A DNA stretch of 64,000 nucleotides from Pachysolen tannophilus NRRL Y-2460 (lineage: Eukaryota): the NCBI GenBank assembly GCA_001661245.1, contig KV454014.1:289559-353558 (forward strand), read 5' to 3'. This document shows, in pieces, positions 2,944 to 62,358 of this stretch. The position numbers and the translations under genes were made by a program. The notes under the pieces are model-generated. The model saw nothing but the letters and a program-made list of their open reading frames with translations. It ran no database searches and was not told the DNA's origin. Numbering within the stretch: position 1 is the stretch's first letter; every line of letters starts with the position of its first letter.

Positions 2944-4189
2944 ATGGCTACTGTATGTATTGAAATTTAACTAATTTTTTTTTTTTTTTTTTTTGTCTTG
3001 TCTTGTCTTGTATATTGTATATTGTATTGTATACTTGTCAAAGCAATTTTAAACATATACTAACAATTTTATAGGAAAAAGAGATACTGTGAGTAACTAA
3101 ACGTATATAATTTATAATAATTTTATATATTGGAATTGAATTTACTAACTGAAATTTTTTTTCATTTTTTTTTTGCTTTTTGATTATTATCAATTAACAG
3201 CGCTTCTTATCCTCAAATCACAGCACCAACTGCCCAGACTGGTTATACTGGTAATTTAACTCCTGAGGAAAAGGAAAAATTACTTGCTTTTAGAAAAGAA
3301 TTGGAAGATGAAGGCTATGAAAAACGTCTTGATGATGCATCATTAGTGAGTATAAATTTTTTTTTACTTTATTACTATTATTATAATTTTAATTTTAATT
3401 AGTATATTTACTAACTTAACCTTTTTTTTTGGTTTTTTTTTTTGGCAAAAGTTGCGATTCTTGCGTGCTCGTAAATTTGATGTGGCAAAGGCAAAAGCCA
3501 TGTTTGTTGCATGTGAAAAATGGAGAAAAGAGTTTGGTACAGATTCTATATTAGAAGATTTTCATTATGAAGAAAAACCAATTGTTGCCAAGTTTTATCC
3601 TCAATATTATCATAAAGTTGATAAAGATGGTAGACCAGTATATATTGAAGAATTGGGAGCGGTTAATATTACTGAAATGTATAAAATCACTTCACAAGAA
3701 AGAATGTTAAAAAATTTGGTTTGGGAATATGAATCATTTGTAAGATTTAGACTTCCTGCATGTTCACGTAAAGTTGGATCATTGATTGAAACTTCTTGCA
3801 CTATATTAGATATAAAAGGTATTTCTTTAAGCGCTCTGTCACAAGTTTTAAGTTATGTAAGAGAAGCTTCATATATTGGTCAAAATTATTATCCAGAAAG
3901 AATGGGGAAATTTTATGTTATAAATGCACCTTTTGGATTCTCAACTGCTTTTAGATTGTTTAAACCATTTTTAGATCCAGTAACAGTTTCAAAAATTTTT
4001 ATCTTGGGTTCATCCTATAAGTCGGAATTATTAAAACAAATTCCTCCTGAAAATTTACCAACAAAATTTGGTGGAACCTCTGAAGTTAGTGATGAAGAAG
4101 GTGGATTATTACTTTCAGATATAGGTCCTTGGAGAGATCCACAATACATTGGCCCTGAAGGTGAAGCCCCAAGAGCATTTGCTTTATAA
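2944..4189 (+). CDS. SEC14: Phosphatidylinositol/phosphatidylcholine transfer protein; exons 2944-2952, 3075-3088, 3201-3345, 3452-4189
   Basis: Spliced product MATEKEILASYPQ...[17 protein letters not shown]...YYPERMGK...SDIGPWRD. Introns have GTATGT/GTGAGT donors, TACTAAC branch points and TAG/CAG/AAG acceptors, all in frame. Confidence 0.96.
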
Positions 4190-4874
4190 TAGTATCTATA
4201 AATACCAAAACTTTATAATCATTGAATTGTTTTTCTTTTTTTTTTTTTTCTACTATTACTGAATTTATAGTTTTTTTTTTTTTTCCGTTTTCCGTTTTTC
4301 GTTTTTCTTTTGTAGTCTTTTGATTTTTTTTTTTAAAAAAAAAATTACCCCCTTATTTTTCTTGATTGATATTATTATTCTAATTATTATATAAAGCTTT
4401 ATATCTATTCCATTACATATATTTTTATTATATATATATATGTGAATTCGTTGTTTAGTAGTAGTAGTCAACAAACACTAACTAAAAAAAAAAAAAAAAA
4501 AAGTGCGCACGCACTTTACTTTGGTTTTTGTCCACTCTTTTACCGCTTTAATACTATTATACGCGGTACGCAAGTGTTGTTTTAAGTGGCAAATAAAATG
4601 CGGATATATAATACGCTGATATACCGCACTTGGTCTGCAAAATGCGTTGCGCCTGCTTTTTTTTGTTTTTTTTAACAGTTTAAGCAGTAACTTTGAAGCA
4701 AAAAGATACTTTAAAACAAACACTTTATATATATATATATATGTGTTATAATTCATCAAACATTTCTATGCTAACCTATGAACTAAGGAGTATATTAGAC
4801 CTATATATTTGAATCTAGTGTTATGATTCTACAAGGAATTGGGTTTTGAAGGGTTTTTTTTGGTTTATTCGAAA

Positions 4875-7800: not shown

Positions 7801-8131
7801 ATTTGTACTTGATATTACTGATAATTCTATTTATTTTACCGACGATTATGAAAAACTAGATACTAATCGTTATAAACCATTGGAGTTGAATATGAGTGGT
7901 ATTAAAATCAAACTTGTTTCTGCTCGCCATAACAACAACAACAGCAACAATAATAATAATAATAATAATAACAATAATAACAATAATAATAATGGAACAT
8001 ATGTTGCCAATGGCGGAGACAGATCATCTCCTTTAAAAGCTGCAAGACTTTTAAGATCACCATCAATCGCTACGCTTCGAGCTGGAGAAACCAGGAACCC
8101 ATTCAAAAGACTCTTCGGAAAAAAAAGTTGA
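4875..8131 (+). CDS. BUD2: RasGAP with C2 domain (Bud2-like); frame break at A10 run near 6815-6824
   Basis: C2-like NPFWRE and RasGAP motifs LFRANSMLTK and FIFLRFFCPAILNPKLF split across ORFs 4839-6830 and 6839-8131. Position next to SEC14 matches S. cerevisiae YKL091C-YKL092C. Confidence 0.88.
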
Positions 8132-8513: not shown

Positions 8514-11500
8514 TTAAAGGTTAAGGTTGTCAGCAAATGATTCATTCATACTCCTAATATCGTCTTCAATTTTATTATTCTTTGAATAGCGAGATGATTC
8601 AGTATTTCCATTTAATTTGTTTAACTTGCTGCTGAAATTTGAATTCAATCTTTCTGAGTTTTTTTTATAATAGTTATTTGAAGTTATGTTTTCTTCATCA
8701 CCATTATCTCCAACTGCCGCGTTGGAAGACGCAGCAGCAGCCAATGATGGCCATTGTTTCGAACTGAAAAATGGAGGTAACCCATTATCGAATTGGTCAT
8801 TATTTCCTTGTTTTCCACCACTTAAACCTTCTGGAGCAAAAGAAGCAACAGAGGACACCTCAAAGTCATCAGCATTATGATTGTTGAAAGAGGACGAGTT
8901 ATCAAAATTTGAAAGAGCATACCTAAATTTGTTACTAGCCGCTCTATTGGATGTCATCTTTAATTGAATTGTACATAATTGAAGATTGTCCAACGGTCCT
9001 TCAACAAGACAGCCTTTTTCTCTGAAATGAACTAATAAATGATTCCATAACGAGTTTTTGGATAATGCACGAGGACTACCTAAGATTACCAATCCATATT
9101 TGGCTCTAGTTAAGGCAACATTAAGACGTCTAGGATCACTTAAAAATCCAATGAGTTGTCTATCATTTGCTCTGACACATGATAATATGATAAAATCTTT
9201 TTCACGACCCTGGAAAGCATCAACTGAAGCTACTTCAACATCCATATATAAACTTTTATCCGCCAAAGATCCACTCATTTGCATATATTGAACAACGTAT
9301 GCTCTTTGACCCTCATAAGGGGTGATAATACCAATTTGTTCGGGCTTGATGCCATCCTTAAATAATGTAGTGACAATTCTTTCACAGTTCATTGCTTCAA
9401 TCCTATTTAAAAATGAAGTACCACTTCCCGAAATTTCCTCTCTCCCATAATTGGACCAAAACATCATTGGGGTATCTCCTATAGGCCATGGGAACATTGA
9501 ATTAGAAATCATTCTTTGCTCGGCGGTAACACCATTTTGCAAGCTTCCTTCGTAAAACATATTACTTGGAAATTCAGAAAGACAAGGATTCATACGATAT
9601 TGAACTTCTAAACGAATTGGAACATGTCCCAACAAAACTAATCTTTCAAATAAAGATTGTTTCAAACCTGCATCACCGGCTTTTTTCTCTAAAATTACAG
9701 GTCCTAATTGTTGATGATCACCAACAAGAATAACTTGTTTTGCTCCTTTCACAATAGGAATCAAACACTCAGGTTCCGAAGCTTGGGTACTTTCATCAAT
9801 AAGTACCGTTCTAAAATTTGTAGAATTTAATCTTCTATCACCAGCACCTACACAAGTACAACAAACCACGTCTGCTTTGTTTAATAAATTGTTTTCAGAC
9901 TTTCTTGCTAATTTGAAATATCTTGCAGTATCTTCAGATGACAATTCACCCAATTCTTCTTTCAATTTGATTAATTTTTTCAATTCGCCTTTAGAATTTG
10001 ATTTTATTAAAGAATGCAAAGCTAAATGGCTTACCGAAGAATCAACGTCTTCTCTACTTCTAGCAGTTAAACGAACAACATTTAAACCTAAAGAATCTAA
10101 CTTGGCTGCCAAGTGATCAACTGCAACATTTGAAGGAGCACAAACCAAGATTTTTTCACTATTTAATTTTGATAAATGGTAGATGATTGTTGCTGATGTA
10201 ACAGTCTTACCTGTACCAGGAGGTCCTTGAATTAAAGAAAGTGGTCTTTGTAAGACACTTCTAACTGCATTTGTTTGTGAAACGTTTAATTCTGCAAATT
10301 TTGGTATAGAAAATCTGTTTGGTAATTTCACATCGAATTCAACAGGGGCAACATCATGACCAAGTAATTTATGGTATATATATGCCGAGACTGATTCTTT
10401 GTCTACTGCAAAAGTTTTCATTGCATTTTGCATTCTATCATAAGAGGTACCTTTCCAAACAAATTCAGCAGTGAAACCAGTAGTACAATTAGTAGGAACT
10501 TTCCCCTTACTTGGATTCAATTCTAAGGTGAACTCTTCTTGGTGAGAGTTTGGTAAACGAACGATATATCCATGACATTCCCATGGTTCTTGATACAAGC
10601 CACTATACCGCAAAACCATCTCATCACCTACTGCGATTTTCAAACCGCCGCTTTCAAAAGTTGACAATGCAAAAGATGCCAAATGCCTATTATTCAAGCC
10701 TAGACTCCATTTAACAGAAATGTGTTCTAATGCCTGACTTTCTTTCAATTGTTTGTCATGATCTGCTTCAGATTTCACAAGTGGCGCAAATGATCTTTGA
10801 TATTCGTATGCATCCGTATACCTCATCAAGATTGGTTGGATTTCTTCTTCTTCTTCACGATTATCAACATCATCGATTGTGGCATTTCTATCGGATCTCC
10901 ATTTCAGCTCCAACTTGATTATCTGTTGAGAACTGATTTGTCTTGCTTCCAACTGCTCCTCTTCTGAAGGTACAGCAGCAATCCAAGGCAAAAATTGTCT
11001 ATCTTCAATCAAAGATTCCCAATGATCTGTATCCCAACTTACATTTTTCGACTGGGCACATGGTAATCTACATAATATCACAACAACAGCTTCTGATTTG
11101 GCTGATACAAACCCCAATATAAATACATTTTTATTCCCACAATTATAACATTCTAAAGTAGTATCTCCTAAATCAGAATCAGCATGTAATGATACCACAT
11201 TATGTCTCGATAACACTAAATGACTAATTATATGAGAACCAGAAGTATTCGATTTCGAATTACAAAACCATTTATTACAAGTGTCACATTTAACAACACA
11301 CGATGGAGAATGAACTCCACAGTAAGAACATGCATATTCAGGTAAATTGTTCTTAATATGTTCATGGCCATGTTCATGGCCATCGTCATGCTCATGCTCA
11401 TGCTCATCATCATGAAGTTCCAACGCCGATCCAGCGTCTTGCTCAGCGTCTTGCTCAGCGTCTTGCTCAGCCAACAACAGCTCCACCTGGCCATCATCTA

Positions 11501-16379: not shown

Positions 16380-16413
<34 letters not shown>

Positions 16414-23194: not shown

Positions 23195-24110
23195 ATGTCA
23201 GCATTTGATGAATTAGCAGCTGAAGAAGAGTATGTAAAATTGAATGAAAAAAAAATAGAAATATAATACTAATTTTTTTTTTTATTTTTTTCTCTATAGC
23301 AAATTACTTGAAAAAGTCTTGATAGGTTTAGCAGAATGTGAACAAGATATGGATGAAGCTGAAAAAGATTCAGAGATATATAGGATCAATAAGACTCAGT
23401 CGATTTATCTGAAAAGACGTTGTTTATTAGTACAAATCCCCAAGTTTTGGTATATTGTATTGGCTCAAAATGAAGATTTTTCAGAATATATATCTACTGA
23501 TGATTTAAAATATTTAGAATATATTAAAGATATTTATGTTGAATGGATGATTGATGCTGAAGGTAAAAAATCTAAAAATCCAAGGGATTTTTCTATTACA
23601 TTTGAATTTGAATCAATTGATGAAAAAGAAATTAAAAATCAAAAAATTGTGAAAAAATTTCAAACTGTTAATGATTCAGAAAATGGTGAAGAAAAATTAA
23701 TATCATCACCTACAAAAATTGAATGGCCTTATGATTATGATTCAATTAATCCAAATAAGATTGAGGATAAAACTTCAAAAGAAGGTAAGAAAAATTATAG
23801 ACTGGGAATGAGATCATTTTTTGCTTGGTTTAAATGGACAGGTTTAAAACCTGGTAAAGAATTTAGAAATGGTGAAGAATTAGCTAGATTAATTACTGAT
23901 GATTTGTTTCCATACTCTGTTAAATACTATACTGAGGCAATGCCTGGAATAGGTGATGATGATGATGATGATAGTTCAAGTGAAGAATTGGATTTGAGTG
24001 ATGATGAAGAAATTGAAGATCAAGAGAATGATATTGAGAAAAATAATAAAAAACGAGTTTTAGAAGATAAAGATCAAATAGATAAACTGTTAAAGAAAAA
24101 GATGAAATAA
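23195..24110 (+). CDS. VPS75: NAP-family histone chaperone; exons 23195-23229 and 23300-24110
   Basis: IPKFWYIVLA, SFFAWFKWTGLKPGKEF, acidic tail. Intron 23230-23299 (GTATGT...TACTAAT...TAG) joins in frame. Adjacent to RPA49, near-syntenic with S. cerevisiae. Confidence 0.9.
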
Positions 24111-24160: not shown

Positions 24161-24191
<31 letters not shown>

Positions 24192-24211: not shown

Positions 24212-25495
24212 TTAACGACCACCTCTTCTTCCTTTTCTAGCAGTTTCTGGGACTTTAAATGGTACTTTTAATGTAGCAATTTTATATGTAGATGCAATAC
24301 TTTTTGAAATACCAAAAGCTTCAGCTTGACTAACTGAACAATTTTTAACAGTACACCCTAAAGCTCTAAATAAACTAACCAATTTACTATGTTTTAAAGA
24401 TAATTCTTGTGCTAATGGTGAAACTTCAACTATAAAATTATCGATATGCAAGATTAAAGACAAGATATAACATAACAATTTATCTTCATGATGTGGATCT
24501 ATTATAAAACTTCTATCTTTTGATCTACCAAATTGTCCAGGTCTTGGGATTGTAAATCTTTCCAATATTCCATCAATTAAAATTTCTGATGGTTCATTTA
24601 AATTTGTAGATAATTTTGATTTATTATTATCTCTTTTATTTGCATAAACACCTAATAATAAAGATAAATAAAATATTAAAGTTAATTTCAATTTTTTATT
24701 TGATGATGAATCATTAATAATTTGTCCTAAACGTTTATTTAAATATTGAGATTTCCCATATGGTAATATTTCTAAAATTTTTTTTAAATCTGATTCTTTT
24801 AAAATTGAATCAATACGTATAATTGAAAATTCTTTCTTTGGTATTATATTATGAATTGGATAAATATCTTCAACATTTTTAGCATCCAGGTTATATATAG
24901 GAATTGGTCTTTCTTTTTCAACTTCTTTATTTAAATCTTCCTTTGCAGGTAGTTTTTCAGTTGTTGATTTAATTGAATCAATTATATCTAATTCATTTTC
25001 TTCTAATTTTTCAGAATCAATTTTATTTTTTTCTAAATCATTAATCAGTTTCTTTGCTCTTTTAGTACCAAATTCTTCACCTAATAAATTTCTTTTAATA
25101 TTATTTTTAACATTTTGATGTTTAATTTTTGGACCTATTAATTTTCTCTTTCTCTTTGATGTTACAGTAGATAATAATAAAGGTGATTTATCAAATAATT
25201 CAAGTGTCTTCCTTGTTGGATCATACAAAGCAACACAATACTGATTCATATCATCACTAGCTAAACTATTACCATTATATTCCAAATGATCATTTTCACC
25301 ATGTAATATAAATTCATTATTATTATTTTGAGAATGTTTCTTATTACGATAAACTTTAAAATTTGTATTTTCAGGAATATTTAATCCATTAAAAAAACTT
25401 CCAACAACAAAATTAGATGGATCTTCAGAGTATGAAGCCACTTTCAATGTAGATACATTATCTTGACCACCACTATTACTCTTTGTCATATCCAA
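24212..25495 (-). CDS. RPA49: RNA polymerase I subunit A49
   Basis: LGEEFGTKRAKK, GQFGRSKDRSFIIDP, YKIATLKVPFK, C-terminal RGGR. Confidence 0.93.
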   Translation of the reverse strand: MDMTKSNSGGQDNVSTLKVASYSEDPSNFVVGSFFNGLNIPENTNFKVYRNKKHSQNNNNEFILHGENDHLEYNGNSLASDDMNQYCVALYDPTRKTLELFDKSPLLLSTVTSKRKRKLIGPKIKHQNVKNNIKRNLLGEEFGTKRAKKLINDLEKNKIDSEKLEENELDIIDSIKSTTEKLPAKEDLNKEVEKERPIPIYNLDAKNVEDIYPIHNIIPKKEFSIIRIDSILKESDLKKILEILPYGKSQYLNKRLGQIINDSSSNKKLKLTLIFYLSLLLGVYANKRDNNKSKLSTNLNEPSEILIDGILERFTIPRPGQFGRSKDRSFIIDPHHEDKLLCYILSLILHIDNFIVEVSPLAQELSLKHSKLVSLFRALGCTVKNCSVSQAEAFGISKSIASTYKIATLKVPFKVPETARKGRRGGR

Positions 25496-27577: not shown

Positions 27578-30500
27578 ATGCTTAGAGCTTTCAAGAGTGC
27601 GATTCCACGCGCTAGAGTTATTCAAGCTCAAGTTTATAATAAAAGAGCTATTATTTCGAAAAATGTTCTTCGAGCTTATGCAACAAGTCCAGATAGTTTT
27701 TTACAAACAAATAATGCAAATTATATAGATGAGATGTATGAAGCTTGGAAACAAGATCCAAGTTCAGTTCATGTTTCATGGAATGCTTATTTTAAAAATA
27801 TGGACAATGGTGTTGCACCTTCAAAAGCATTTGTTGCACCTCCAAATTTGGTTCCAACTCCAGAAGCTGGAATTCCAGGATTAATGACTGAAGGTGCTAA
27901 TTATTCCGATGATATTATGATACATTTGAAAACACAGTTGTTGGTTAGAGCATATCAAGTTAGAGGTCATCAAAAGGCCAAAATTGATCCTTTAGGTATT
28001 GCATTTGGTGATGATAAAAGTAAACCAATTCCAAAAGAATTAACTTTAGAATATTATGGTTTTACTGCAGAAGATTTAGAAAAAGAAATTGAATTAGGTC
28101 CAGGTATTTTATCAAGATTTTCAACATCAAATAAAAATACTTTAAAATTAAAAGATATTATTGCTAGTTGTGAAAAAATTTATTGTTCAACTTTAGGTAT
28201 TGAATATACTCATATTCCTTCAAGAGAAAAATGTGATTGGATAAGAGAAAGAATTGAAATTCCAACTCAACATAAATATTCTGTTGATGAAAAAAGACAA
28301 ATTTTAGATAGATTAATTTGGGCTTCTTCTTTTGAAAATTTTCTTTCAACAAAATTCCCAAATGATAAAAGATTTGGTTTAGAAGGTGCAGAATCAGTTG
28401 TACCAGGTATGAAAGCATTAATTGATCGTGCTGTTGAATTTGGTGTTGAAGATATTGTTATTGGTATGGCTCATAGAGGTCGTCTTAATATGTTATCAAA
28501 TGTTGTTAGAAAACCAAATGAATCAATTTTTTCAGAATTTACAGGTTCAAAAGAATTTGATGAAGGTTCAGGTGATGTTAAATATCATTTAGGTATGAAT
28601 TATGAACGTCCAACTACTTCTGGTAAACATGTAAATTTATCCCTTGTTGCTAATCCATCACATTTAGAAGCTGAAGATCCAGTTGTATTAGGTAGAACTC
28701 GTGCTATTCAACATTTTAAAAATGATATTGGTGATTTCCAAAAAGCAATTGGTATCTTGGTCCATGGTGATTCAGCTTTTGCTGCACAAGGTGTTGTTTA
28801 TGAAACAATGGGATTCACTGCATTACCTGCTTATTCTACAGGTGGTACTGTTCATGTTATCATCAATAATCAAATTGGTTTCACTACAGATCCACGTTTT
28901 GCAAGATCAACTCCATACCCATCAGATATTGCTAAAGCCATCAATGCTCCAATCTTCCATGTTAATGCAGATGATATGGAAATGGTTACTTTTATTTTCC
29001 AATTAGCTGCTGAATATAGAGCAACATTCCATTCTGATGTTATTGTTGATGTTGTTGGTTACCGTAAACATGGTCACAATGAAACTGATCAACCTTCTTT
29101 TACACAACCATTAATGTACAGTAAGATTGCAAATAAAAAACCAATCTTGGATGTTTATGTTGATAAATTATTAAAAGAAGGTTCATTTACAAATGAAGAT
29201 ATTGATGAACATAAAAAATGGGTTTGGAATACTTTAGAAGAACAATTTTCAAAACGTACTGAATATAAAGCTACTTCAAGGGAATGGTTAACTACACCAT
29301 GGGAAGGTTTTAAATCACCAAAGGAATTAGCAACTGAAGTTTTACCACATTTACCAACTGCTGTCGATGAATCAATTTTGAAAAAAATTGGTAGTACTAT
29401 TTCTTCATGGCCAGAAGGTTTTGAAATTCATCGTAATTTAAAACGTATTTTAGGTACAAGAAAAAAGACAATTGAAACTGGTGAAGGTATTGATTGGGCT
29501 ACAGGCGAAGCTTTAGCATTTGGTTCTTTAGTATTAGAAGGTCAACATGTTAGAGTTTCAGGTCAAGATGTTGAAAGAGGTACTTTTTCACAACGTCATG
29601 CTGTATTACATGATCAAAAATCAGAAAATACTTATATTCCATTAAAACATCTTAGTGAAAATCAAGCAGATTTTGCAATTTCAAATTCATCACTTTCTGA
29701 ATATGGTGTTATGGGTTTTGAATATGGTTATTCATTAACTTCTCCAGATGCTTTAATTCAATGGGAAGCTCAATTTGGTGATTTTGCCAATACTGCTCAA
29801 GTTATTATTGATCAATTTATTGCATCAGGTGAAAGTAAATGGAAGCAACGTTCAGGTCTTGTTTTATCATTACCACATGGTTATGATGGTCAAGGTCCAG
29901 AACATTCTTCTGCACGTATAGAACGTTATTTACAATTGACAAATGAAGATCCACGTTTCTTCCCAAGTCCAGATAAACTTGAGCGTCAACATCAAGATTG
30001 TAACTTCCAAGCTGCATATCCAACCACACCTTCAAATCTTTTCCATTTATTGAGACGTCAACAACATCGTCAATTTAGGAAACCATTAGTTTTATTTTTT
30101 TCCAAATCATTATTACGTCATCCATTAGCTCGTTCTTCTTTATCTGAATTTACTGGAGATTCTCATTTCCAATGGATTATTGAAGATGTTGAATTGGGTA
30201 AATCAATTAATGAAAAAGCTGGTATTAAACGTTTAATTATTCAAAGTGGTCAAGTATATACTGCTTTACATAAGAAACGTCAAGATCTTGGTGATAAAGA
30301 AACTGCATTACTTAAAATTGAACAATTACATCCATTCCCATTTGCTCAATTAAGAGATGCTATAAACTCTTATCCAAACTTGCAAGATATTGTCTGGTGT
30401 CAAGAAGAACCATTGAATCTGGGTGCTTATACTTTTGTAGCTCCAAGATTAAGAACAGTATTAGCTCAAACTTCTTACAAAGATCTTGGTTTCCGTTATG

Positions 30501-37000: not shown

Positions 37001-38005
37001 ACAGAGTTTTGTTCCCCTTCATCACCAACTAGATTGTGTGAAGTTTGTTATGCAAATCATCAATATGATTTTGTTACAATGGATGGTTTCCCTGAAGGAT
37101 CTGATTTTATAAAATTTTTCCAACAATGGATAAATTCTAATAGTGATGGTGAATGTCCATTGGGAGGAAAAGCACCTTATTCACATGCAATAAAATTTAA
37201 CTCTAATGATTCCAACCTGATGTCTTCATATTTTAGAACTTCTCATAAACCGTTAAGATCTCAAGACGATTTCATCGAAGCTTATAGATCTTCATTAAAA
37301 TTAATTGATGAATTGGTTAAATTAACTGGAATTGAGAAACTTTTTTCTTATTCACCTTTCTATATTTTTTTCGTTCAATATGAAACTATTGTGAAATTAA
37401 CTTTTACTTTAATTGCAGTTGCTTTATTCATTATTTTATTGATTTCATCAACTTTATTAGGATCAATTAGAATCAGTGGGTTATTGGTATCTACTGTAAT
37501 TTTCATATTGACTGATATAGCTGGTATCATGTCACTTTGGAATATTTCATTAAACGCAGTCAGTCTAGTGAATTTAATAATCTGCATTGGTTTAGCTGTT
37601 GAATTTTGTACACATATAGCAAGAGGCTACACTTTCCAAGATAGAACCTTGATTTCTCCAGAATCACAAGCAGAATCAAAAATTAATGATACACAATCAA
37701 TAAGAGCATTTAATACTTTGATAAATATAGGTGGATCAGTTTTCAGCGGCATAACAATGACAAAATTCATAGGAATATTGGTTTTATACTTTACAAGATC
37801 AAAAATTTTTGAAATATATTATTTCAGAATGTGGTTCAGCTTAGTTATAGTTTCATCTTTACATAGCTTGATATTCTTACCTGTATTGTTATCCTATTTT
37901 GGTGGTGAAGGTTATTGCTTCTCAGAAAATACAAGCTTTGTCGGCACTGACCTATTGGATAGATTACTGGCATACGAGAATGAAAACAGTTACGACTCCG
38001 ACTGA
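34061..38005 (+). CDS. NCR1: Niemann-Pick C1-like vacuolar sterol transporter
   Basis: Cys-rich N-terminal domain (CALYGSCGKKS, CPACKENF), sterol-sensing domain (IIAEVIPFLILAIGVDN), GLAVEFCTHI. Confidence 0.97.
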   Translation: MMLLRVILGLLVTRFVVVLALFEVADITPIHQEGYCALYGSCGKKSLFGSELPCASNVEAVEPSMKELDLLKEICGWDNVDKVCCNENQLVDLKSNLQKVNPLISSCPACKENFYQFFCHFTCSSNQSLFVNVTETMISPITQKEIVTELDEFVNDDYVSGFFNSCKNIKFSASNGYAMDLIGGGAKTYKEFLKFLGDEKPLLGGSPFQINYKYENDGIEDNTISPINFTSYACNDTDYKCACSDCQNSCPVLPLASVHKHCTVGIMPCFSFSIIMIYILLISGGLAFYLKRNSKKYLFANPLLVTDELGTADDDDDDDDVNFLNDGSLVLSSYLLNDYLESCFCKLGLYCALYPATIIATSLIIVTALSSLMFLIKLEKNPINLWVSSDAESFKQKQMFDKNFGPFYRSEQVFIVDDSPNNDNNAGSILDNYSTLKWWFEKENEIKNLAYTNNRTGTITTLDDICFRPMEDSSCVIESFTQYFQGDINLFPESQYKQKLKNCIDSPVNCLPDFQQPLKKELLFGGYEDDDLLTSKAIVITFVINNSNEEDSDYMENVSNWEKILEDYLLNLQNITLNDNSKNIRLSFNTEISLEKELNKSTNTDIKIIVISYLVMFAYASLALGGTITFFNVQTLITTKFSLGLIGIFVVLLSVTSSAGLCALFGVKSTLIIAEVIPFLILAIGVDNIYLITHELQRFNKNLSDNYESIPERIAKTLGKIGPSIMISSLSQFLCFMLATFVSMPAVKNFAKYSAGAVVINTALQLTAFVSLLSLDQKRTENNRLDCFPCVKADGRILLPSENRNGTDTILSRSIIPELLENNKNTSGNFLTKFIKNYYAPFILQKKAKKFILGIFFIWFGTSLTLLPGIKFGLDQRIALPNDSYLIDYFNDVYRYLNVGPPVYFVVDDLNVTSRENQQKICGKFPSCNEFSLLNVLEEETKRPNSSFIIEPPSSWLDDFLLWLNPELDQCCKFKKNTNETEFCSPSSPTRLCEVCYANHQYDFVTMDGFPEGSDFIKFFQQWINSNSDGECPLGGKAPYSHAIKFNSNDSNLMSSYFRTSHKPLRSQDDFIEAYRSSLKLIDELVKLTGIEKLFSYSPFYIFFVQYETIVKLTFTLIAVALFIILLISSTLLGSIRISGLLVSTVIFILTDIAGIMSLWNISLNAVSLVNLIICIGLAVEFCTHIARGYTFQDRTLISPESQAESKINDTQSIRAFNTLINIGGSVFSGITMTKFIGILVLYFTRSKIFEIYYFRMWFSLVIVSSLHSLIFLPVLLSYFGGEGYCFSENTSFVGTDLLDRLLAYENENSYDSD

Positions 38006-40864: not shown

Positions 40865-41572
40865 TCACATTCCCATTTCAGCCTGTAGGGCTCTTAATGC
40901 TTCTTCGTCTTCATCTTCATCTTCTTGTGTTGCAATTTTATGGGCAGGTAACTTAGGTACCCCACTTACGTCTGGCATTTCTAAATTATTATTATTTTTA
41001 TCTTTATCATTAACAACAATAGGTGTTACTTTATTCTTTGTCTGTGTGTCTCCAACCAAGTTTTTATCCAATTCTTCTTGCTGGAGCAGTTCTAATTCTT
41101 CATCCAATTCATCTTCATCAATTTCTTGACCTAAAGGTCTTGATATAGCTTCAGAAATTTCTTGTCCCACATCTAATTGTTCTCTAATTTCATCCATTGT
41201 ATCTTCAACTTTATCCATATCAAAATCACCATGAATTTGTTTTATTGCCTTTGCACCATTCTTCATTACATTCATGGTTTCACTATTTAAATTAGCATTT
41301 TCTATACTAAATAATAATTGTTCTAAATTATCAACTTGTGATTGAATCTTTTCATGTTGAATTTCATAATTTTTTTTCCTTTTTAAAGCCATCTTAGCAG
41401 CTGCTTTATTTGTAGTAATACTCTTCTTTGCAACAACTTGTTGTTCATCAATTTGTCTTTCAAGATGAGCCGATTTTTTATTTAATAAATTAATTTGTTC
41501 TCTTATTTCAACAATCCGTTTTTTTGGCTCATCTTTCTTTTTTTGATTGTTTCCAAAAAAATATGAAAACAT
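40865..41572 (-). CDS. SNF7: ESCRT-III subunit Snf7/Vps32
   Basis: ALKRKK, SIENANLN, IDEDELDEEL, DEEALRALQAEMGM; adjacent to SED5 as in S. cerevisiae. Confidence 0.95.
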   Translation of the reverse strand: MFSYFFGNNQKKKDEPKKRIVEIREQINLLNKKSAHLERQIDEQQVVAKKSITTNKAAAKMALKRKKNYEIQHEKIQSQVDNLEQLLFSIENANLNSETMNVMKNGAKAIKQIHGDFDMDKVEDTMDEIREQLDVGQEISEAISRPLGQEIDEDELDEELELLQQEELDKNLVGDTQTKNKVTPIVVNDKDKNNNNLEMPDVSGVPKLPAHKIATQEDEDEDEEALRALQAEMGM

Positions 41573-45300: not shown

Positions 45301-46472
45301 AACATTATGCCGCATTAGGTGGTGATATTGAAGGTGCAAAACAAGTCAATTTACTGCCTTCCGATAGACCACAAGATGTTTACTCATATGTTGCGGGCTT
45401 AGTTCAGAAAAGAGTTGATCTTGATGCGGCTAATGGAGTTGAAGATGCTATAAAAGTCCAGGATAAGATAAAAAGAAAAGTTGTCAAGCAAACTGTGATG
45501 ACAAGTGTTTATGGTGTCACATTTGTTGGTGCCAAAGAACAAATTGCTAGACAACTTGTTGACCATTTCCCAGATGAATTAGATTTAAAGTTTGCAAGTG
45601 AATACTTGGCAAGACAAGTTTTTGCCTCTATTAGAGAATTATTTGAAGCTGCACATTTGATTCAGGATTGGTTAGCAGAGTCTGCAAAGAGAATTACCAA
45701 ATCCGTCAGTTTGGATGTTGGCGAAACTGATGCTGAATTCTTATCATCCGTCATATGGACTACTCCCTTAGGTTTACCAATTGTCCAACCATATAGAAGT
45801 ATGGGAAAGAAACAAGTTCATACAAATTTACAAACAGTGTACATTACTGATCCGTTTGCCATAACTCCAGTTGATTCTAGAAAGCAAATGGCTGCATTTC
45901 CACCTAACTTTATCCATTCATTGGATGCATGTCATATGTTATTATCTGCGGTGAAATGTAATGAAGCAAATTTAGATTTTGCTTCAGTTCATGATTCATA
46001 TTGGACACATGCTTGTGATATTGATAAGATGAATGAGATTTTAAGAAAGACTTTTATAAGTTTACATGAAGTTGATCTCATTGCTAAATTAAAAGATGAA
46101 TTTGACAGACGTTATAAAGGTTTCTTACAGGTTATTTCAATTTCCAAGAAAACCGAAGTTGCAAAGAAAATTATTGAATTAAGAAAAGAATTGAGCGCAA
46201 AAAAGGGTGCACCAATTACTTCCAGCGACGAATTACATTTGGAAAGAGAAAGACAAGCTTTATTAAAGTCTGATGATTTAGAAAAACAGAAAATGGGTCA
46301 GCAAATGATCACCACTATTAGTTTAATCGAGAATGAAGATTTATCAACATTAAAATCAAAAACCACAAGTGACACTTTAAAAGTTTTTGCACCTTTTAAA
46401 TTAGATCCTATTCCATCGAAAGGTGATTTTGACGTTAAAGGAATTAAGGACAGTACTTATTTCTTTTCATAA
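42360..46472 (+). CDS. RPO41: Mitochondrial T7-like RNA polymerase
   Basis: HNLDFRGRAYP, HQDGTCNGLQHY, RKVVKQTVMT, FPPNFIHSLDA, SVHDSYWTH, C-terminal YFFS. Confidence 0.98.
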   Translation: MLRSTISKRSYSSNKNVLSTTITTTTTTSKRFLKSVSISQASLSTDEVGSSAGNKDYNYTKFFTDLKSYESGLKRSYKKLPNTSVHYSSPNDDIYRSLNSRIIVKQWSLLEACISTKDYLRAQFILDGLYNLCCDNKSDLSSFLDGINQYLLSWSIDENVSMDDLSKWMVDVKSKYPLLVPNDRTFAILINSSINKSKQNQNDVLNNDFIHFILEYKKSSNTESLKEVLKHLDIFGLENVRYLKNHYNISFDEIPRELHEFFEALKGNNIPIENINKKIIEKNLKINDEEEKEEKEEIISAIKLDVKSLEQDGVGKNLNTTSTEYFANDDIEIPTLRKDSETLKGVDTFGLKVIRHSLLGLTSKNKLQMLKDFQERLGSNEILPSSITMYTNTKNDELLKNDIDFYHIYRTLQNGKQREVFDAVLEEFNLERQRSLEVRSIDAASEKWKHTYEMLLKNNIMTNHDKNINYYLYKWYVQAVELVKEEVQNCKNLKEFEKSKNLTPEQEAQHKDREIYGPYLTLVSPEKMSTICILELLKVNAASNISSGVRTARSVLSVGRAVELEYRAQELLKSENDIYKTYRSIKKTSEFKKLVTKSTDEKFRKLLNRAKKDLSNNQFTWSPDIRAKVGSVLISLLLQVAKIQVNGTDPTTNKKVTGEVPAFYHSYQYVSGSRIGVIRFHPDFEKKLTKEDMNSAIAPQGLPMLVKPRPWENYNSGGYLYSSNQILRSKDSIEQQEYLKAVSEKGLINSIYQGLNVLGDTAWTVNERLFKIIVKVWNTGEPYLEIPGIVSEPQYPPPPPRDVDPSIRRKWKVEVQNLANEFSKNRSLRCDANYKLEIARAFLGEKIYFPHNLDFRGRAYPLSPHFNHLGNDLSRSLLIFWKGKELGEGGLDWLKVHLSNLFGFDKVPLEDRINFVNENMENLKDSVMDPLNGKGWWKKADKPWQALSTMFEIYEATQLPDPSKYLSHQPVHQDGTCNGLQHYAALGGDIEGAKQVNLLPSDRPQDVYSYVAGLVQKRVDLDAANGVEDAIKVQDKIKRKVVKQTVMTSVYGVTFVGAKEQIARQLVDHFPDELDLKFASEYLARQVFASIRELFEAAHLIQDWLAESAKRITKSVSLDVGETDAEFLSSVIWTTPLGLPIVQPYRSMGKKQVHTNLQTVYITDPFAITPVDSRKQMAAFPPNFIHSLDACHMLLSAVKCNEANLDFASVHDSYWTHACDIDKMNEILRKTFISLHEVDLIAKLKDEFDRRYKGFLQVISISKKTEVAKKIIELRKELSAKKGAPITSSDELHLERERQALLKSDDLEKQKMGQQMITTISLIENEDLSTLKSKTTSDTLKVFAPFKLDPIPSKGDFDVKGIKDSTYFFS

Positions 46473-48139: not shown

Positions 48140-48179
<40 letters not shown>

Positions 48180-48483: not shown

Positions 48484-51400
48484 ATGGAACTCTCGTTATA
48501 CGCCGTCAACTTGCGGAATGTGTTCAAGAACCCAGTGCTAAATGAAGCTGGTTATAGGGTTAAACTTGTGGATAATGATGAGTCTTTGTTGATAGCGGAA
48601 AGAGTTGTTATATGGTTGAAAGGTGATAATGTTTTCAGGAAATTGATTTTTGAAGATGACGAAATAGTGGTTGATGCGATATTTACCACGTTCAATAGCG
48701 TTGGCAATGCTCATGTTATTGGTAATTCTGGCGCTTCTAGTGTTTCTAGTACCTCGACTACGGTAAAAGCTACCGCCAAATGTTTGGTAGTGTTATTAAG
48801 AGAACATGCTCATGTTTATTACTTGGATGGAACAAAATATATAATTAGCTTTCCATTTCATCTTAATAGCGCGTTAAGTTTTGAAAATGGGTTGATCTTG
48901 GAAAGAGAATTTTCAAATCATGGGAATAGACTGCTTTTGGCAAGCCATGGAACTGTAATTGGAACTGGAACTGGAACTACAACTGCAACTACAAATGGAA
49001 CTGGAACTGGAAATGGTACTGGTACTAGTACTAGCACTAGTACTAGTACTAACAGCGGCATCAAATCTTCATCGACTTCTGGAACTGCTGTTGGCAATAT
49101 AGGTAGTAATAGCAATAACAGCAGCGGTAGTGGAGGACCTTTAAATAATTACGAATTAAGTATACCAGGTTCTTCATCAACAATGGGGAATTCTTCATCA
49201 CTGAATGGAAATGGTAGTAATACCACTAGTACTAATGGAAATAATAATCAAATAAATTTTTTAACTATGCTTGATCCACTCTCAGAATTTGGTGCTGTGG
49301 TATCGTCGTCTACTTCCTCAATTTCAAATAAGGAAAATTTAATATTATTTCCAGCTTCAAATAAATCTTCATTGGCTGCAACTTTTAATTCTTCAGATCA
49401 TGTAATAACCGTATATCATGTTAGATTTTTAACTCATAATAAGATTGGAAATGAAAAGAAAACTTCAACAAAGAAAACGTCATCAATATCTTCATCTACA
49501 CTGCCAGGTGGTTTAAATAATCAAAGATCAATGTCAAGAAGGAAATCTTCACTAAGAAAAATAAGTTCAAATAATCATAGTGCTTCATCAAATACTCCAA
49601 AGAAAATGGAAATTGAAGAAAATAATGATAATAATAATAATAAAAATAATGATAATACCAATAACTTAAAAATTGTCGGTTCTGTAAATTCTGCATCATT
49701 AGGATATGATAAAATACGATCCACATCTCATTCAGAAGTCTTATCTCTTGATAGAATGGCTTCAGGAACTGAAAGTATACCGGATTCGATAAAACCAGTT
49801 TCTTCAAAATTTGATACTATTAATTTAAGGAAAGATGTTATATTGACAAAAATAGAATCCATTGAATTTCAAGATGATAAACATCTTTTAAAAATTTGTA
49901 ATTCATCATATGCAAATCAAGATTGTATTGTTATTAATAATTTGAAAACTAAACAATGTGAAATATTACTTTTTAAAAAATCAGAAAATAATTCAATAAG
50001 TTTACCGGTTTTTCAAACTAGTTTCACAATATCATGTTTAGATTGTATTCCATTAGCTGCTACAAATTCAGATCATGATGGTATACTCATAATCTTAAAA
50101 GATTCAAGTAATATATGCCTAATAAATCCATTTTTAAACTTGATTTCTGCTAATATAGATTTATCAACAAAATCATATCCTCCAATCAAACTTTTAAGTG
50201 ATTCCAATGGTTTAGAAATTGCAATGATTGATCACGATAAAAAATTCCATATATTAAATTTAATAATTAAACCAAAATTACAAGTCGTCTCAAAGATATT
50301 GGAATCCTTAAAATATTTATCAAATTCATATGCATACGAATATTTTTGGTTACAATGGTGTTCTGCTTTATCATTAGATGAATCATTGAATGAATGGAAT
50401 CTGTTAATTACAGTGTTATTATCTGTTTTAATCCCTGATAAAACTCAATTTGATGAAAGCAAAATTCCTTCTAACGAAATTACATCTAGATTACCTTCAG
50501 CAAGATTCTTGAGAAATAAAACAGAAGCAAAATATTCTTTAACTGATTTAGCTCCAAAATTGATATTAAGCATACATTTATTAAGGGAAGATATGAAATT
50601 GGATCTTAATCAACAAATATATGTTGAAAAGTTGGGAGTTTTACTTTCACAATTAACTTTATGGATGGGTTGGTCTGAAAATTGGTATAATTATTATAAT
50701 TCAAATAAAAAATTTGATCACCATACAAGATTCTTATCAATAGAACTAATCAATAAACCTTTAAATTTATTTGAATCCTTATCGAGTTTATTCAATAGCT
50801 CCTTATCTTCAGCAAATGATATTGTTCCATATTTGACTTTCTCACAACTAGCTGAAGAAAATGAATCAATTGATGAATTATTGATACCAAGAACGTATTA
50901 CATATTACGGTTATTTGAAGCAATAGTCTCAAATGATTTTGAAGCAAAAGATGTTGTCGATTTAATGGTAGAATTTGGTATTACTATAAATGATTTGAAA
51001 ACTTATCCTGTTGGTGTTTCAATCCCTTTGATAGAATGCATTGTCATATGTCAGGAAAACACTCCAATAAAATGGTCTGAAGCCGCTTTAGAGTTAGTCG
51101 GTAGAAAAGATTTATTGAGATTTTTGCATAGTTCCAAATTACAAAATAAATTTAAAAGAGTCAAGACTGATGAAAGTGTAGATGATATAAATAAAATTTC
51201 AGCTCCAACGGGTGCAAGAGATATTAATCAGATATTACAATCATTAAACGATGTTGAACCAATATCTTCTTGGGATGGCCAAGCAGAAGCTGACAGAATT
51301 AATATAACAAAGCTTATTTTTTCTGAAGATCGGAGATTTTACGAAGTTACAAAACTTTTACAAACATCAAAAGTTCAAACTGCAGCTTTGTCCGTAGATA

Positions 51401-53667
51401 TAGATTTAAGTGAACATGAATTATTAACTCAACAAAGGGAACTAGCAGCTAATGTCGCTTTAAGGACTCTCACAATTCCATTGGGTAGGAGTGCTTTGTT
51501 TTTGTCCAGTAGATTACCTTTAATGACTGAAAGATTTCCAATTCCAAAATTAAATTTTAATTGTTTGATTTCTCCTTCCATGACAACTACAACATTGGAT
51601 CTGGACTTGATTGATGTTGAAACTACTCAATGGGGTTTTTTCCATAATGGTGCATCTTCAGGTTTAACTATATCAAGAGATGCAAAGGGCATCAGTGGTA
51701 GTTGGATAGTATTTAATCAGCCTCCAGTTTTAAATGCTCAACATGCAGGATTCTTATTGGGTTTAGGACTTAATGGACATTTGAAAAGATTGGAAGAATG
51801 GCATATTTACAACTATTTGGGTCCAAAACATACATATACTAGTATTGGGTTATTGCTTGGTATGTCTGCTAGTTTAAGAGGAACAATGGATGTCAAATTA
51901 ACCAAAGTGTTATCTGTCCATGTTATTGCATTGCTTCCTCCGGGTGCGACGGATTTAAAAGTTTCCTTACCCGTCCAAACAGCAGGGTTAATTGGTGTTG
52001 GATTGTTATATCTAGAAACTCAGCATCATAGAATGAGTGAAATTCTCTTATCTCAAATTGATGGAAAATTAGTTTATGACGATGTTGAAATTGTAAACGA
52101 AGGTTACCGTTTAGCAGCAGGTATAAGCTTGGGTTACATTAACTTAGGAAAAGGTGATGATATAAAAGGTTTGAATGACACCCATATTGTTGACAAGTTA
52201 CTCTCAATGGCCGTGTCTTTGAAAGATGTGCAAACTAGTCAGCAATTTGATAAATCTTGTGGTGGAGCTATTTTAGCCTTATCATTTATTTATATGAAGA
52301 CTGGAAACGAAAGTATCGCATGGAAATTGGTGGTTCCAGAGACTGAACAGTTACTAGATTACGTTCGTCCTGATCTATTATTATTGCGCTGTGTTGGGAA
52401 AAATCTTATAATGTGGCAAAATATTGGTAATTCTATAATGTGGGTAGATTCCCAGGTGCCTTTGTGTCTATTGAGAAAATATGCTTTAAAAGACTTGAAA
52501 AATTTGGGTAGCGACCAACTAAGTTTTTTCAATATTATAGGAGGAAGTTGCTTATCCATTGCGTTGAGATACGCTTCAACTGGTGATGTACAAGCCAGGG
52601 ATACTGTATTATACTATTTGGACCTGATGATGAAAATTTGCTTGTTACCAGCTACTAACCATGATGAAAAATTGACACATGCTGGCGCTTGCACAATAAG
52701 AGATGTTTTGAGCATTTCTGCTTCCCTAATAATGGCAGGTACTGGTGATTTAGAAGTTTTCAGAAGATTAAGAGTATTATACGGTAATACTCAAAAATCA
52801 GTTTCTTATGGAAACTATATGGCTATAAATATGGCTTTAGGGTTTTTATTTCTTGGTGGTGGACAGTATGCATTTAGCGATTCAAATTTCTCTATAGCCA
52901 CGTTGATAACTGCGATATATCCAATTTTCCCGTCCTCAAACACTTCTATGATGTCTGAAGGTAATGTAGATGTTCATTTACAGGCATTGAGACACTTTTG
53001 GGCACTTTCTGTCGAACCACGTTGTTTAATTATAAGAGATGTTGATTCTTTAAAACCTTGTGAAGTTCCTGTACAAGTAGAGTTGACTGATGGAAGCGTT
53101 TTACCGTTAAAGTCACCATGCTTGCTACCAAATTTATCCCATATATCTAGAATTCAAACATTATCAAATGATTATTTCAAATTAGTTATAGATTTGAAAA
53201 GGAACTATGAACATTACAAATTTTTTAAAAAATACTTGACCTTATACATTTATCAGAAAGAAAGTTATCACCTGAAAAAATCATTTAGCGACATTATTCG
53301 TTCTCTTGGTGAAAAGGAAGAAACCAAAATTAAGAGTCGTAATAAGAATGGGGTATATTTTAAGAATCCATTAAAAGACCGAGCGATATTCAATATATTT
53401 GACGATTTTGAAAAATCAGTAATTATATCTTCCTTGTCTTCTTCGTCCAAGGAAGATGACGAGAATTCTTTGAGTAACTACATGAAAAAAACAGAGAACA
53501 AACTACTTGAAATGTCTTCATCACCAACTTCGATTGATGATTTGTGGAATTTGAAGATACTTTTCAAGTTTTGTGATCAAATAATTGATGATGATCTTCA
53601 CTATTTAAGTATTGATTTCATTGAACAATTAAAAGTACAAATTTGGTATTTAGTAAATAATTTATAA
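48484..53667 (+). CDS. APC1: Anaphase-promoting complex subunit 1 (start codon uncertain)
   Basis: PC repeats: FHNGASSGL, HAGFLLGLGLNGHL, EGYRLAAG, GFLFLGGG, LQALRHFW. Confidence 0.95.
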   Translation: MELSLYAVNLRNVFKNPVLNEAGYRVKLVDNDESLLIAERVVIWLKGDNVFRKLIFEDDEIVVDAIFTTFNSVGNAHVIGNSGASSVSSTSTTVKATAKCLVVLLREHAHVYYLDGTKYIISFPFHLNSALSFENGLILEREFSNHGNRLLLASHGTVIGTGTGTTTATTNGTGTGNGTGTSTSTSTSTNSGIKSSSTSGTAVGNIGSNSNNSSGSGGPLNNYELSIPGSSSTMGNSSSLNGNGSNTTSTNGNNNQINFLTMLDPLSEFGAVVSSSTSSISNKENLILFPASNKSSLAATFNSSDHVITVYHVRFLTHNKIGNEKKTSTKKTSSISSSTLPGGLNNQRSMSRRKSSLRKISSNNHSASSNTPKKMEIEENNDNNNNKNNDNTNNLKIVGSVNSASLGYDKIRSTSHSEVLSLDRMASGTESIPDSIKPVSSKFDTINLRKDVILTKIESIEFQDDKHLLKICNSSYANQDCIVINNLKTKQCEILLFKKSENNSISLPVFQTSFTISCLDCIPLAATNSDHDGILIILKDSSNICLINPFLNLISANIDLSTKSYPPIKLLSDSNGLEIAMIDHDKKFHILNLIIKPKLQVVSKILESLKYLSNSYAYEYFWLQWCSALSLDESLNEWNLLITVLLSVLIPDKTQFDESKIPSNEITSRLPSARFLRNKTEAKYSLTDLAPKLILSIHLLREDMKLDLNQQIYVEKLGVLLSQLTLWMGWSENWYNYYNSNKKFDHHTRFLSIELINKPLNLFESLSSLFNSSLSSANDIVPYLTFSQLAEENESIDELLIPRTYYILRLFEAIVSNDFEAKDVVDLMVEFGITINDLKTYPVGVSIPLIECIVICQENTPIKWSEAALELVGRKDLLRFLHSSKLQNKFKRVKTDESVDDINKISAPTGARDINQILQSLNDVEPISSWDGQAEADRINITKLIFSEDRRFYEVTKLLQTSKVQTAALSVDIDLSEHELLTQQRELAANVALRTLTIPLGRSALFLSSRLPLMTERFPIPKLNFNCLISPSMTTTTLDLDLIDVETTQWGFFHNGASSGLTISRDAKGISGSWIVFNQPPVLNAQHAGFLLGLGLNGHLKRLEEWHIYNYLGPKHTYTSIGLLLGMSASLRGTMDVKLTKVLSVHVIALLPPGATDLKVSLPVQTAGLIGVGLLYLETQHHRMSEILLSQIDGKLVYDDVEIVNEGYRLAAGISLGYINLGKGDDIKGLNDTHIVDKLLSMAVSLKDVQTSQQFDKSCGGAILALSFIYMKTGNESIAWKLVVPETEQLLDYVRPDLLLLRCVGKNLIMWQNIGNSIMWVDSQVPLCLLRKYALKDLKNLGSDQLSFFNIIGGSCLSIALRYASTGDVQARDTVLYYLDLMMKICLLPATNHDEKLTHAGACTIRDVLSISASLIMAGTGDLEVFRRLRVLYGNTQKSVSYGNYMAINMALGFLFLGGGQYAFSDSNFSIATLITAIYPIFPSSNTSMMSEGNVDVHLQALRHFWALSVEPRCLIIRDVDSLKPCEVPVQVELTDGSVLPLKSPCLLPNLSHISRIQTLSNDYFKLVIDLKRNYEHYKFFKKYLTLYIYQKESYHLKKSFSDIIRSLGEKEETKIKSRNKNGVYFKNPLKDRAIFNIFDDFEKSVIISSLSSSSKEDDENSLSNYMKKTENKLLEMSSSPTSIDDLWNLKILFKFCDQIIDDDLHYLSIDFIEQLKVQIWYLVNNL

Positions 53668-60785: not shown

Positions 60786-61011
60786 AAGAATCTTTTTACT
60801 TCATGTAAATTAGATTAAATTAGATTAGATTAGATTAATTATTATTATTATTATTTTTTTTGTTTTCCTTTTTTTATATGTAATTTTGTAAAACCAAATG
60901 CATACATCTCTCTATAAATGAATTAAAAGCAATTAAAAAAACAGAAATAAAAAAAAAATGAGAAATGAGAAATGTGAAATAAGAAATGAAAATAATGAAA
61001 AAAAAGTGTAA

Positions 61012-62358
61012 TCACCAAAATTTCCAACCATGAAGTTTTTCAACTCCAACGTAATCTTCGATTTCATCTCTGCTTTTAAGATTTATAAAATTTTCAACAT
61101 TTGAGAATTTTTTAATTTCTTCATCATTACTTGGAGTTAACATTCCTACACCTTTACCACCTAAAGTTGTTTGAAAAGTTTCAAAACCTTCTTTTGTCAA
61201 ATCTTCAATTAATCTAGTCATTTTCAATTTATCAACGTCATCATTCAATAACGTAATGGCACATCCACCACCACCTGCACCTGTTAATTTTGTCGCTCCA
61301 ACTTCCAATTCATCTGTCAAGAGTTTAACTTTATCCAAAGCAGGATGACTAACACCTAAAGAAATCAATAAACCTTGATTTATTCTAATTAATTCTCTTA
61401 AATTTTCCTTTGATTCTTCATTGAATGGTTTAATCATAATACTATATGCTTCACGTGTAACGTGTTCAATACTATCTAATATAGAATTGATCAGATTTGG
61501 GTATTCTTGAGTTAATCTTGAAACATTACCAACAAGTACAGCAGTTCTTCTTGGAATTTTTGTATTAGTTAAAAGTAAATTTAAAGATGGGAAATTTCTC
61601 ATTGAAGTTCTTACACTTGGTAATGATCCACCTTTCCTTTGAAACATTACTGCACCTCCATGGGAAGCACAAGCATTATCAATTCCTGAAGGAGTACCAT
61701 GAGTACATTTTTCACCCATTAATGACCATGAATCAATAAATTGACAATCTGAATTTTCTCCTGGGTTTAATTCATCTTTTGATAAAATTGCAGGGTTAAC
61801 ATGTCCTCCAATCAATGCTAAAGCAGATGAAATACAAACTATAATTGAAGCAGAAGAACCTAAACCTGCACCAATTGGTAAAGTAGATCTAACACAAAAA
61901 GTTAAACCTTTTGTATCTTCAAAACATAAATTTAAATAAAGATATAAAAAAGCATGCAGAGCAGAATAATGAGCAGTTGATTTAATATCAACAAGACATT
62001 TAGCCAACCCATCAACCAATTCAGGAGATATCTCACCTGTTGGACAAGGTCTTTCTTTACCAATAGAAGAGGTACCGCCAACACCAATATTATTAGAATC
62101 ATTATTATTATTAACACCAGTATTAACACCACGAACCAAGTACCAGGGCAAATCTGACCGCTTCCAAGAGTGCTTAAAATCTATATCAGGGAACTCCAAC
62201 GAAACAAAATCCTCATTCTCACTCAGAGAAACCAACAAGTACGTCCTCAAAGACAAAGCAGCTGCAATAGCAGGCTTATTATAAACAGCAGCATGTTCAC
62301 CAAAGATAATAACTTTACCTGGAGCAGATGTCAAAAACGGAGTCTGAATAAATACCAT
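61012..62358 (-). CDS. ERG12: Mevalonate kinase
   Basis: SAPGKVIIFGEHAAVY, LPIGAGLGSSA, HGTPSGIDN, KLTGAGGGG. Confidence 0.97.
   Translation of the reverse strand: MVFIQTPFLTSAPGKVIIFGEHAAVYNKPAIAAALSLRTYLLVSLSENEDFVSLEFPDIDFKHSWKRSDLPWYLVRGVNTGVNNNNDSNNIGVGGTSSIGKERPCPTGEISPELVDGLAKCLVDIKSTAHYSALHAFLYLYLNLCFEDTKGLTFCVRSTLPIGAGLGSSASIIVCISSALALIGGHVNPAILSKDELNPGENSDCQFIDSWSLMGEKCTHGTPSGIDNACASHGGAVMFQRKGGSLPSVRTSMRNFPSLNLLLTNTKIPRRTAVLVGNVSRLTQEYPNLINSILDSIEHVTREAYSIMIKPFNEESKENLRELIRINQGLLISLGVSHPALDKVKLLTDELEVGATKLTGAGGGGCAITLLNDDVDKLKMTRLIEDLTKEGFETFQTTLGGKGVGMLTPSNDEEIKKFSNVENFINLKSRDEIEDYVGVEKLHGWKFW

Follow-up and report, generated by a model that had tools for sequence, protein, structure and literature searches.

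CTG codons in a 64-kb budding-yeast genome segment avoid conserved leucine and serine positions and are very probably read as alanine

Introduction

Decoding of CUG as alanine (Ala) has been characterized in the yeast Pachysolen tannophilus. Of the 907 CUG positions that liquid chromatography-tandem mass spectrometry (LC-MS/MS) fully supported in this species, 97.2% are reported to carry Ala, while 8 were ambiguous and 18 had other residues, CUG being described as just as unambiguous as AUG (PMC4937558). According to the same account, the transfer RNA (tRNA) of this species that reads CUG, tRNA(CAG), has G3:U70 and A73, the number of CUG codons is 16,824 in 5,288 genes (~3.2 per gene), and an analysis of conservation placed Pachysolen CUG at neither conserved leucine (Leu) nor conserved serine (Ser) positions (PMC4937558). 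Here we analyze the CTG codons of a 64-kb stretch of yeast DNA (the window, by which we mean this stretch at its full length), for which a reading of the sequence alone, hereafter the sequence-only reading, had proposed that CTG encodes Ala and that the DNA belongs to the Pachysolen clade. The CUG-Ala code as such is already known: its publication dates from 2016, NCBI lists it as a separate translation table (table 26), and the public protein records of this DNA are already translated with it. A second report of the code, by Riley et al., reportedly appeared in PNAS in 2016.

Other reassignments of CUG share some of these features. In the CUG-Ser1 code (table 12; Candida, Debaryomyces, Babjeviella) CTG is, like in the window, reassigned, rare and displaced from conserved Leu positions; unlike in these species, the CTG codons of the window are absent from Ser columns, the window falls outside the Ser1 species and its public proteins are inexact under table 12. 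The CUG-Ser2 code and Ascoidea asiatica resemble the window in combining an AT-rich yeast genome with non-Leu CTG, and Ascoidea rubescens is among the top NCR1 matches listed (55% identity). However, Saccharomycopsis crataegensis, the sole Ser2 representative in our tree, does not group with the window, which is without a Ser signal. The Ala clade (Pachysolen, Nakazawaea, Peterozyma) and the Leu2 clade (Komagataella, Ogataea, Pichia and others) are reported to form a deep split within the Pichiaceae (PMC5951914).

With the Pachysolen code the window has in common that CTG is rare and lies off conserved Leu and Ser columns, with Ala ranking first by a narrow margin over valine (Val), that its position is sister to Leu2 Pichiaceae, and that its public proteins are exact under table 26; the comparison brought out no difference from that code. 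We are therefore confident that the window is a segment of a CUG-Ala-clade budding yeast (Pachysolen or a close relative within the deep split of the Pichiaceae) in which CTG is very probably read as Ala. The proposal of the sequence-only reading is borne out by four lines of evidence: the table-26 proteins, the position in the tree, the non-Leu and non-Ser usage of CTG, and the best score for Ala.

Public protein records and phylogenetic position

Three database proteins (P0001, P0121 and P0241) are the window's own NCR1, RPO41 and APC1, respectively. All three are exact suffixes of the open reading frame (ORF) translations under table 26, and none of them is so under tables 1 or 12. Compared to the standard translation, the differences are confined to CTG codons, with Leu changed to Ala at 10, 4 and 7 codons, respectively (21 of 21). 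The depositor has already applied the CUG-Ala code to the record of this DNA and, because of this prior use of table 26, our finding of CUG-Ala decoding is not new.

The start of the public APC1 protein lies 32 codons beyond the ORF's first ATG, excluding positions 48388-48483 of the window. The eighth CTG of APC1, at ORF codon 27, lies upstream of this annotated start and is probably not translated.

Phylogenetic placement was assessed with a FastTree analysis (LG+gamma) of NCR1 and APC1 over 2,553 columns and 19 taxa, rooted on Nadsonia, the taxa being those for which both proteins were species-named among the homologues listed. The window paired with one relative (support 1.0), and this pair was sister to Komagataella, Ogataea and Candida arabinofermentans (support 0.979), and separate from both the Candida/Scheffersomyces group and Saccharomycopsis/Wickerhamomyces. 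As the window is sister to the Leu2 Pichiaceae, its position matches that of the published Ala clade.

CTG usage and column conservation

The window is an AT-rich, gene-dense budding-yeast segment with a guanine-plus-cytosine content of 29.4%, in which we considered the 24 ORFs of at least 150 amino acids that start with ATG. CTG is rare in this set, with 68 of 14,701 codons (4.6 per thousand, compared to 58.1 for TTA and 26.7 for TTG). At least one CTG is present in 22 of the 24 ORFs, and the mean of ~2.8 per ORF (68 in 24) can be set beside the ~3.2 per gene published for P. tannophilus.

For the analysis of conservation, NCR1, RPO41 and APC1 were each aligned with 119 homologues (ranks 2 to 120 of the best 120 listed, after removal of the window's own protein), and ERG12 with 138 of 150 representatives, 12 of at least 560 amino acids having been dropped. 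These four genes contain 25 CTG codons, of which we kept the 21 whose columns hold 60 residues or more (the deep sites). A column was considered conserved when one amino acid made up at least 50%, and Codetta-style log-odds were summed for each codon. As a control of the method, each of the 57 further sense codons listed was assigned its standard amino acid, the score being positive in every case (two genes).

A single CTG among the 21 deep sites was located in a Leu column, whereas the codons TTA, TTG, CTT, CTC and CTA of the same four genes were in such columns at 334 of 529 sites (Fisher p = 5e-8), and none of 20,000 draws of 21 ordinary Leu sites was as low as CTG. Similarly, Ser columns held none of the 21 CTG codons, compared to 130 of 411 Ser codons (p = 9e-4). 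Leu codons that are rarer than CTG keep a clear score for Leu, with sums of +11.1 for CTC (8 sites) and +26.6 for CTA (21 sites). The deep sites divide into 15 unconserved columns, three of the Val plus isoleucine (Ile) type, and one each of Ile, Ala and Leu. CTG clearly behaves as an ordinary codon of neither Leu nor Ser.

Among the amino acids, Ala obtained the best log-odds sum at the 21 deep sites (Ala -11.4, Val -12.1, Ile -13.7, Ser -15.7, threonine -17.2, Leu -17.5). At 10 sites compared pairwise with solved structures the BLOSUM62 sum was +3.8 nats for Ala, +1.7 for Val, +0.3 for Leu and -1.0 for Ser, and the combination of both sets, in which FSF1 is not included, yielded -7.6 nats for Ala, -10.4 for Val, -13.7 for Ile, -16.7 for Ser and -17.2 for Leu. 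The lead of Ala over both Ser and Leu is ~9 nats in this combined sum, and that over Ser ~4 nats in the deep set. When pseudocounts and sampling were varied over nine settings, including the closest 40 or 15 homologues, Ser ranked third at best and Leu fifth at best.

Residues at individual CTG sites

Residues in homologues were evaluated at 32 of the 68 CTG sites, comprising the 21 deep sites, the 10 solved-structure sites and one site, in FSF1, covered by a metagenome relative (Table 1). Ala is found in homologues at seven of these: APC1 672, ERG12 134, UPF1 232, SEC14 113, RPA49 148, VPS75 21 and FSF1 236. Nine CTG sites could be compared with S. cerevisiae orthologues, which have Leu at none and Ala at three. 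In two columns of the Val/Ile type (NCR1 532 and ERG12 289), Ala is present in the single closest relative. For FSF1, a search of the PDB returned no solved homologue and a single metagenome scan returned one relative, L001; codon 236 of this gene, which had been put forward as a possible counter-example to Ala, thus has Ala in the one homologue found. The seven Ala sites were considered, and rejected, as proof that CTG is Ala, as CTG is under-represented at Ala columns in comparison to GCN codons.

The CTG listing over the 24 ORFs places all 11 CTG codons named in the sequence-only reading in frame at the coordinates it gave. The homologue residues it had given hold in part: S. cerevisiae Upf1 indeed has Ala, and for ERG12 61 of 135 homologues do, but at KGD1 948, for which it had named Ala in fungal Kgd1, the five solved homologues shown, human and bacterial, have glutamine (Gln). 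Among the other sites it listed, APC1 672 is an Ala column (91 of 119), the residue at the SNF7 site is methionine (Met) and the column at NCR1 734 is mixed. Its examples are a favourable selection, most CTG sites being located in unconserved or Val/Ile-type columns. The residue tally it had suggested as a check finds neither Leu nor Ser in the majority, and Ala weakly separated from Val, over the 32 sites.

The closest relative (P0002/P0242, 50-57% identical) has a residue at 16 of the CTG sites, which is Leu at five (NCR1 335, 703 and 734; APC1 182 and 272) and Ala at two (NCR1 532 and APC1 672). If these two proteins were predicted with the standard code, the Leu residues in question could go back to CTG codons shared with the window, and the relative would be a second species of the Ala clade. 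At Ala-conserved columns this relative has Leu in 2 of 27 cases for NCR1 and 1 of 31 for APC1, numbers that are too small to tell mistranslation.

Table 1. In-frame CTG codons of the window and the residues at the corresponding positions of homologues (standard one- and three-letter amino acid codes; "closest" refers to the closest homologues in the alignment).
Feature	Position in window	Strand	Residues in homologues or remark
Gene-dense segment with all 68 in-frame CTG counted	3500..62358	.	CTG listing over 24 ORFs
CTG, SEC14 codon 113	3836..3838	+	Aligns with Ala185 of S. cerevisiae Sec14
CTG, BUD2 codon 2	4878		CTG listing
CTG, UPF1 codon 232	10905..10907	-	Ala in S. cerevisiae Nam7/Upf1, context KLEAKWRS
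CTG, VPS75 codon 21	23409..23411	+	Ala in best solved homologue 7vf4; Glu in S. cerevisiae Vps75
CTG, VPS75 codon 152	23802..23804	+	Leu in 7vf4, Gln in S. cerevisiae; no Ala column
CTG, RPA49 codon 201	24887..24889	-	Ile in S. cerevisiae Rpa49
CTG, RPA49 codon 148	25046..25048	-	Ala in S. cerevisiae Rpa49
CTG, KGD1 codon 948	30419..30421	+	Gln in 5/5 solved homologues shown, human and bacterial only
CTG, FSF1 codon 236	32007..32009	+	Ala (GCT) in L001, 67% identical, sole homologue found
CTG, NCR1 codon 532	35654..35656	+	V 51 / I 49 of 118; Ala in closest relative P0002
CTG, NCR1 codon 734	36260..36262	+	S 40 / L 37 / I 22 / A 5 of 119; Leu in 15/20 closest
CTG, NCR1 codon 1053	37217..37219	+	I 107 / V 10 of 119
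CTG, SNF7 codon 162	41087..41089	-	Met in S. cerevisiae Snf7
CTG, RPO41 codon 999	45354..45356	+	V 56 / I 29 / L 14 / M 8 of 119
CTG, APC1 codon 672	50401..50403	+	A 91 / L 10 / S 8 of 119; Ala in 17/20 closest
CTG, APC1 codon 1629	53272..53274	+	L 106 of 118; single clear Leu column among 21 deep sites
CTG, ERG12 codon 289	61492..61494	-	V 62 / I 43 / L 12 of 137; Ala in closest relative P0361
CTG, ERG12 codon 134	61957..61959	-	A 61 / V 26 / I 18 / L 10 of 135; Ala in 18/20 closest
CTG, Mob codon 307			Lys in S. cerevisiae Mob2
CTG, ADH (alcohol dehydrogenase) codon 254			Val, within poorly aligned stretch

Alternative decodings of CTG

A number of results count against the assignment of CTG to Ala. 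CTG is no ordinary Ala codon either, with 1 of 21 sites in Ala columns compared to 109 of 208 for the GCN codons (p = 1e-5), and its scores add up to a negative value whichever amino acid is considered. Ala leads Val by just 0.7 nats at the deep sites and by just 2.8 nats when both sets are combined, and the nine settings have Ala on top in six cases, Val in two and Ile in one. Several CTG codons occupy columns of Val/Ile (NCR1 532, RPO41 999, ERG12 289), Ile (NCR1 1053) or Leu (APC1 1629), or positions where homologues have Gln (KGD1 948), Met (SNF7 162) or lysine (Mob 307). In addition, 36 of the 68 CTG sites lie outside our evaluation: four in sparse columns that represent insertions (APC1 27, 182, 272 and 372), four beyond the pairwise alignments (UPF1 41, VPS75 247, Mob 26 and Mob 79), and 28 in BUD2 (9), the MIF4G/MA3 protein (7), the WSC protein (4), ORF 11972-13570 (2), SED5 (2), PSD (2), the signal peptide peptidase SPP (1) and the DAO oxidoreductase (1). 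No tRNA genes were detected in the window by ARAGORN, with and without introns, or with Rfam, and thus no tRNA(CAG) is seen. The public annotation, finally, reflects the depositor's choice of translation table and constitutes no independent measurement.

Decoding as Ser, as in Candida/Debaryomyces (Ser1, table 12) or Ascoidea/Saccharomycopsis (Ser2), would likewise be accompanied by rarity of CTG and avoidance of Leu columns, which are expected under any reassignment, and as Ala and Ser exchange easily, Ala columns are compatible with Ser as well; Ser is also present in 9 of the 20 closest homologues at NCR1 335 and makes up part of the mixed column at NCR1 734 (Table 1). Nevertheless, we consider this decoding highly improbable, in view of the absence of deep sites from columns with at least 50% Ser, the score of Ser relative to Ala in both the deep and the combined set, the grouping of the window with neither Ser1 species nor Saccharomycopsis, and the mismatch of the public proteins under table 12. 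CTG could also be an ordinary, rare Leu codon in an AT-rich genome that coincides with Ala columns by chance. The Leu-conserved column at APC1 1629 and the Leu in most of the closest homologues at NCR1 734 (Table 1) are in line with this, as are the Val/Ile columns, which suit Leu as a conservative replacement. The scarcity of CTG in Leu columns is hard to reconcile with such a role; furthermore, CTC and CTA score positively for Leu though they are even rarer, and the S. cerevisiae orthologues do not have Leu at any of the nine sites compared and have Ala at three. The probability that the standard code applies to CTG is, in our view, close to nil.

The presence of CTG at columns conserved for Leu, Ile or Val (APC1 1629, NCR1 1053 and 532, RPO41 999, ERG12 289), together with the failure of every amino acid to score positive, raises the idea that CTG is not a clean Ala codon, its reassignment being unfinished, with residual or condition-dependent dual decoding as Ala with some Leu. 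Stochastic Ser/Leu decoding of CUG has been reported for Ascoidea asiatica (PMC6041473), and the division of CTG sites in the window among Ala-type (7 of 32), Val/Ile-type and a few Leu-type columns might be taken to reflect ambiguous decoding of this kind. However, for P. tannophilus the published measurements indicate a CUG that is almost uniformly Ala and as unambiguous as AUG (PMC4937558), and mixed columns are also explained if CTG arose by mutation of neighbouring codons where the protein tolerates the change. We therefore regard ambiguous or mixed decoding as very unlikely, and give an incomplete reassignment with partial dual decoding just as little credence.

Origin of the CTG sites and significance

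CTG is at least two substitutions away from every GCN codon, and one substitution away from TTG and CTN (Leu), GTG (Val), ATG (Met), CAG (Gln), CCG (proline) and CGG (arginine, Arg). If CTG is read as Ala, CUG would be decoded by a tRNA-Ala whose anticodon has mutated to CAG and which, judging from the literature, would combine G3:U70 with A73 and lack a long variable arm. After such a reassignment, new CTG codons would arise mainly by single steps at sites that tolerate Ala, and old conserved Ala sites would be reached slowly. The occurrence of CTG mostly at variable or Val/Ile/Leu-type columns may thus result from its distance of two substitutions from any GCN codon. The mix of columns in the window, with Val/Ile/Leu columns, Gln in KGD1, Met in SNF7 and many variable columns, fits an origin from neighbouring codons, as does the Arg in close relatives at NCR1 798 and 1303. 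Residues encoded by codons a single step away (L, V, M, Q, P, R) were seen by eye at 9 of the 21 CTG columns, which is not clearly above background. As reassigned CTG is mostly found at variable sites, conservation tallies over a single 64-kb window reject Leu and Ser but, by themselves, cannot establish Ala.

Reading CTG as Leu would misplace a residue in most proteins of this genome, considering that 22 of the 24 ORFs here carry the codon, and homology models, heterologous expression and proteomics searches would all be distorted by mistranslated CTG. The value of the present analysis lies in the confirmation of the published code.

Gene content and assembly features of the window

Pfam identifies the genes of the window as SEC14, a RasGAP/BUD2-like protein, UPF1, a WSC protein, a signal peptide peptidase, two zinc alcohol dehydrogenases, VPS75/NAP, RPA49, KGD1, a sideroflexin (FSF1), a DAO oxidoreductase, NCR1, SED5, SNF7, RPO41, a Mob protein, APC1, PSD, a MIF4G/MA3 protein and a GHMP kinase (ERG12), and the gene names given in the sequence-only reading agree with these assignments.

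The SEC14 ORF (3500-4189, + strand) begins at about residue 73 of S. cerevisiae Sec14, with ORF residue 62 aligning to residue 134; judged from this alignment, the N-terminal part of the protein must sit in a putative upstream exon. The Mob-family gene (46959-47900, - strand) matches S. cerevisiae Mob2, the Cbk1 activator, with E = 6e-100, compared to E = 9e-34 for Mob1, and because the match to Mob2 is far better than that to Mob1 we assign it as the predicted MOB2 orthologue.

A run of 466 N is present at positions 16414-16879, with a single N at 16886, and the apparent ORF at 16340-16897, which crosses this run, is an artefact.

The BUD2-like RasGAP gene is found in two frames (ORFs 4875-6830 and 6839-8131), broken at a run of 10 A at positions 6815-6824. 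One extra A in this run is present in all contigs from four sequencing runs (two studies, one of which may itself be the source of this DNA), and by ORF arithmetic it joins the stop-to-stop frame 4827-6830 to the frame 6800-8131. Since the additional A in these contigs reunites the frames, the split of BUD2 is most likely a homopolymer-length error of the assembly, and not a pseudogene or an intron.

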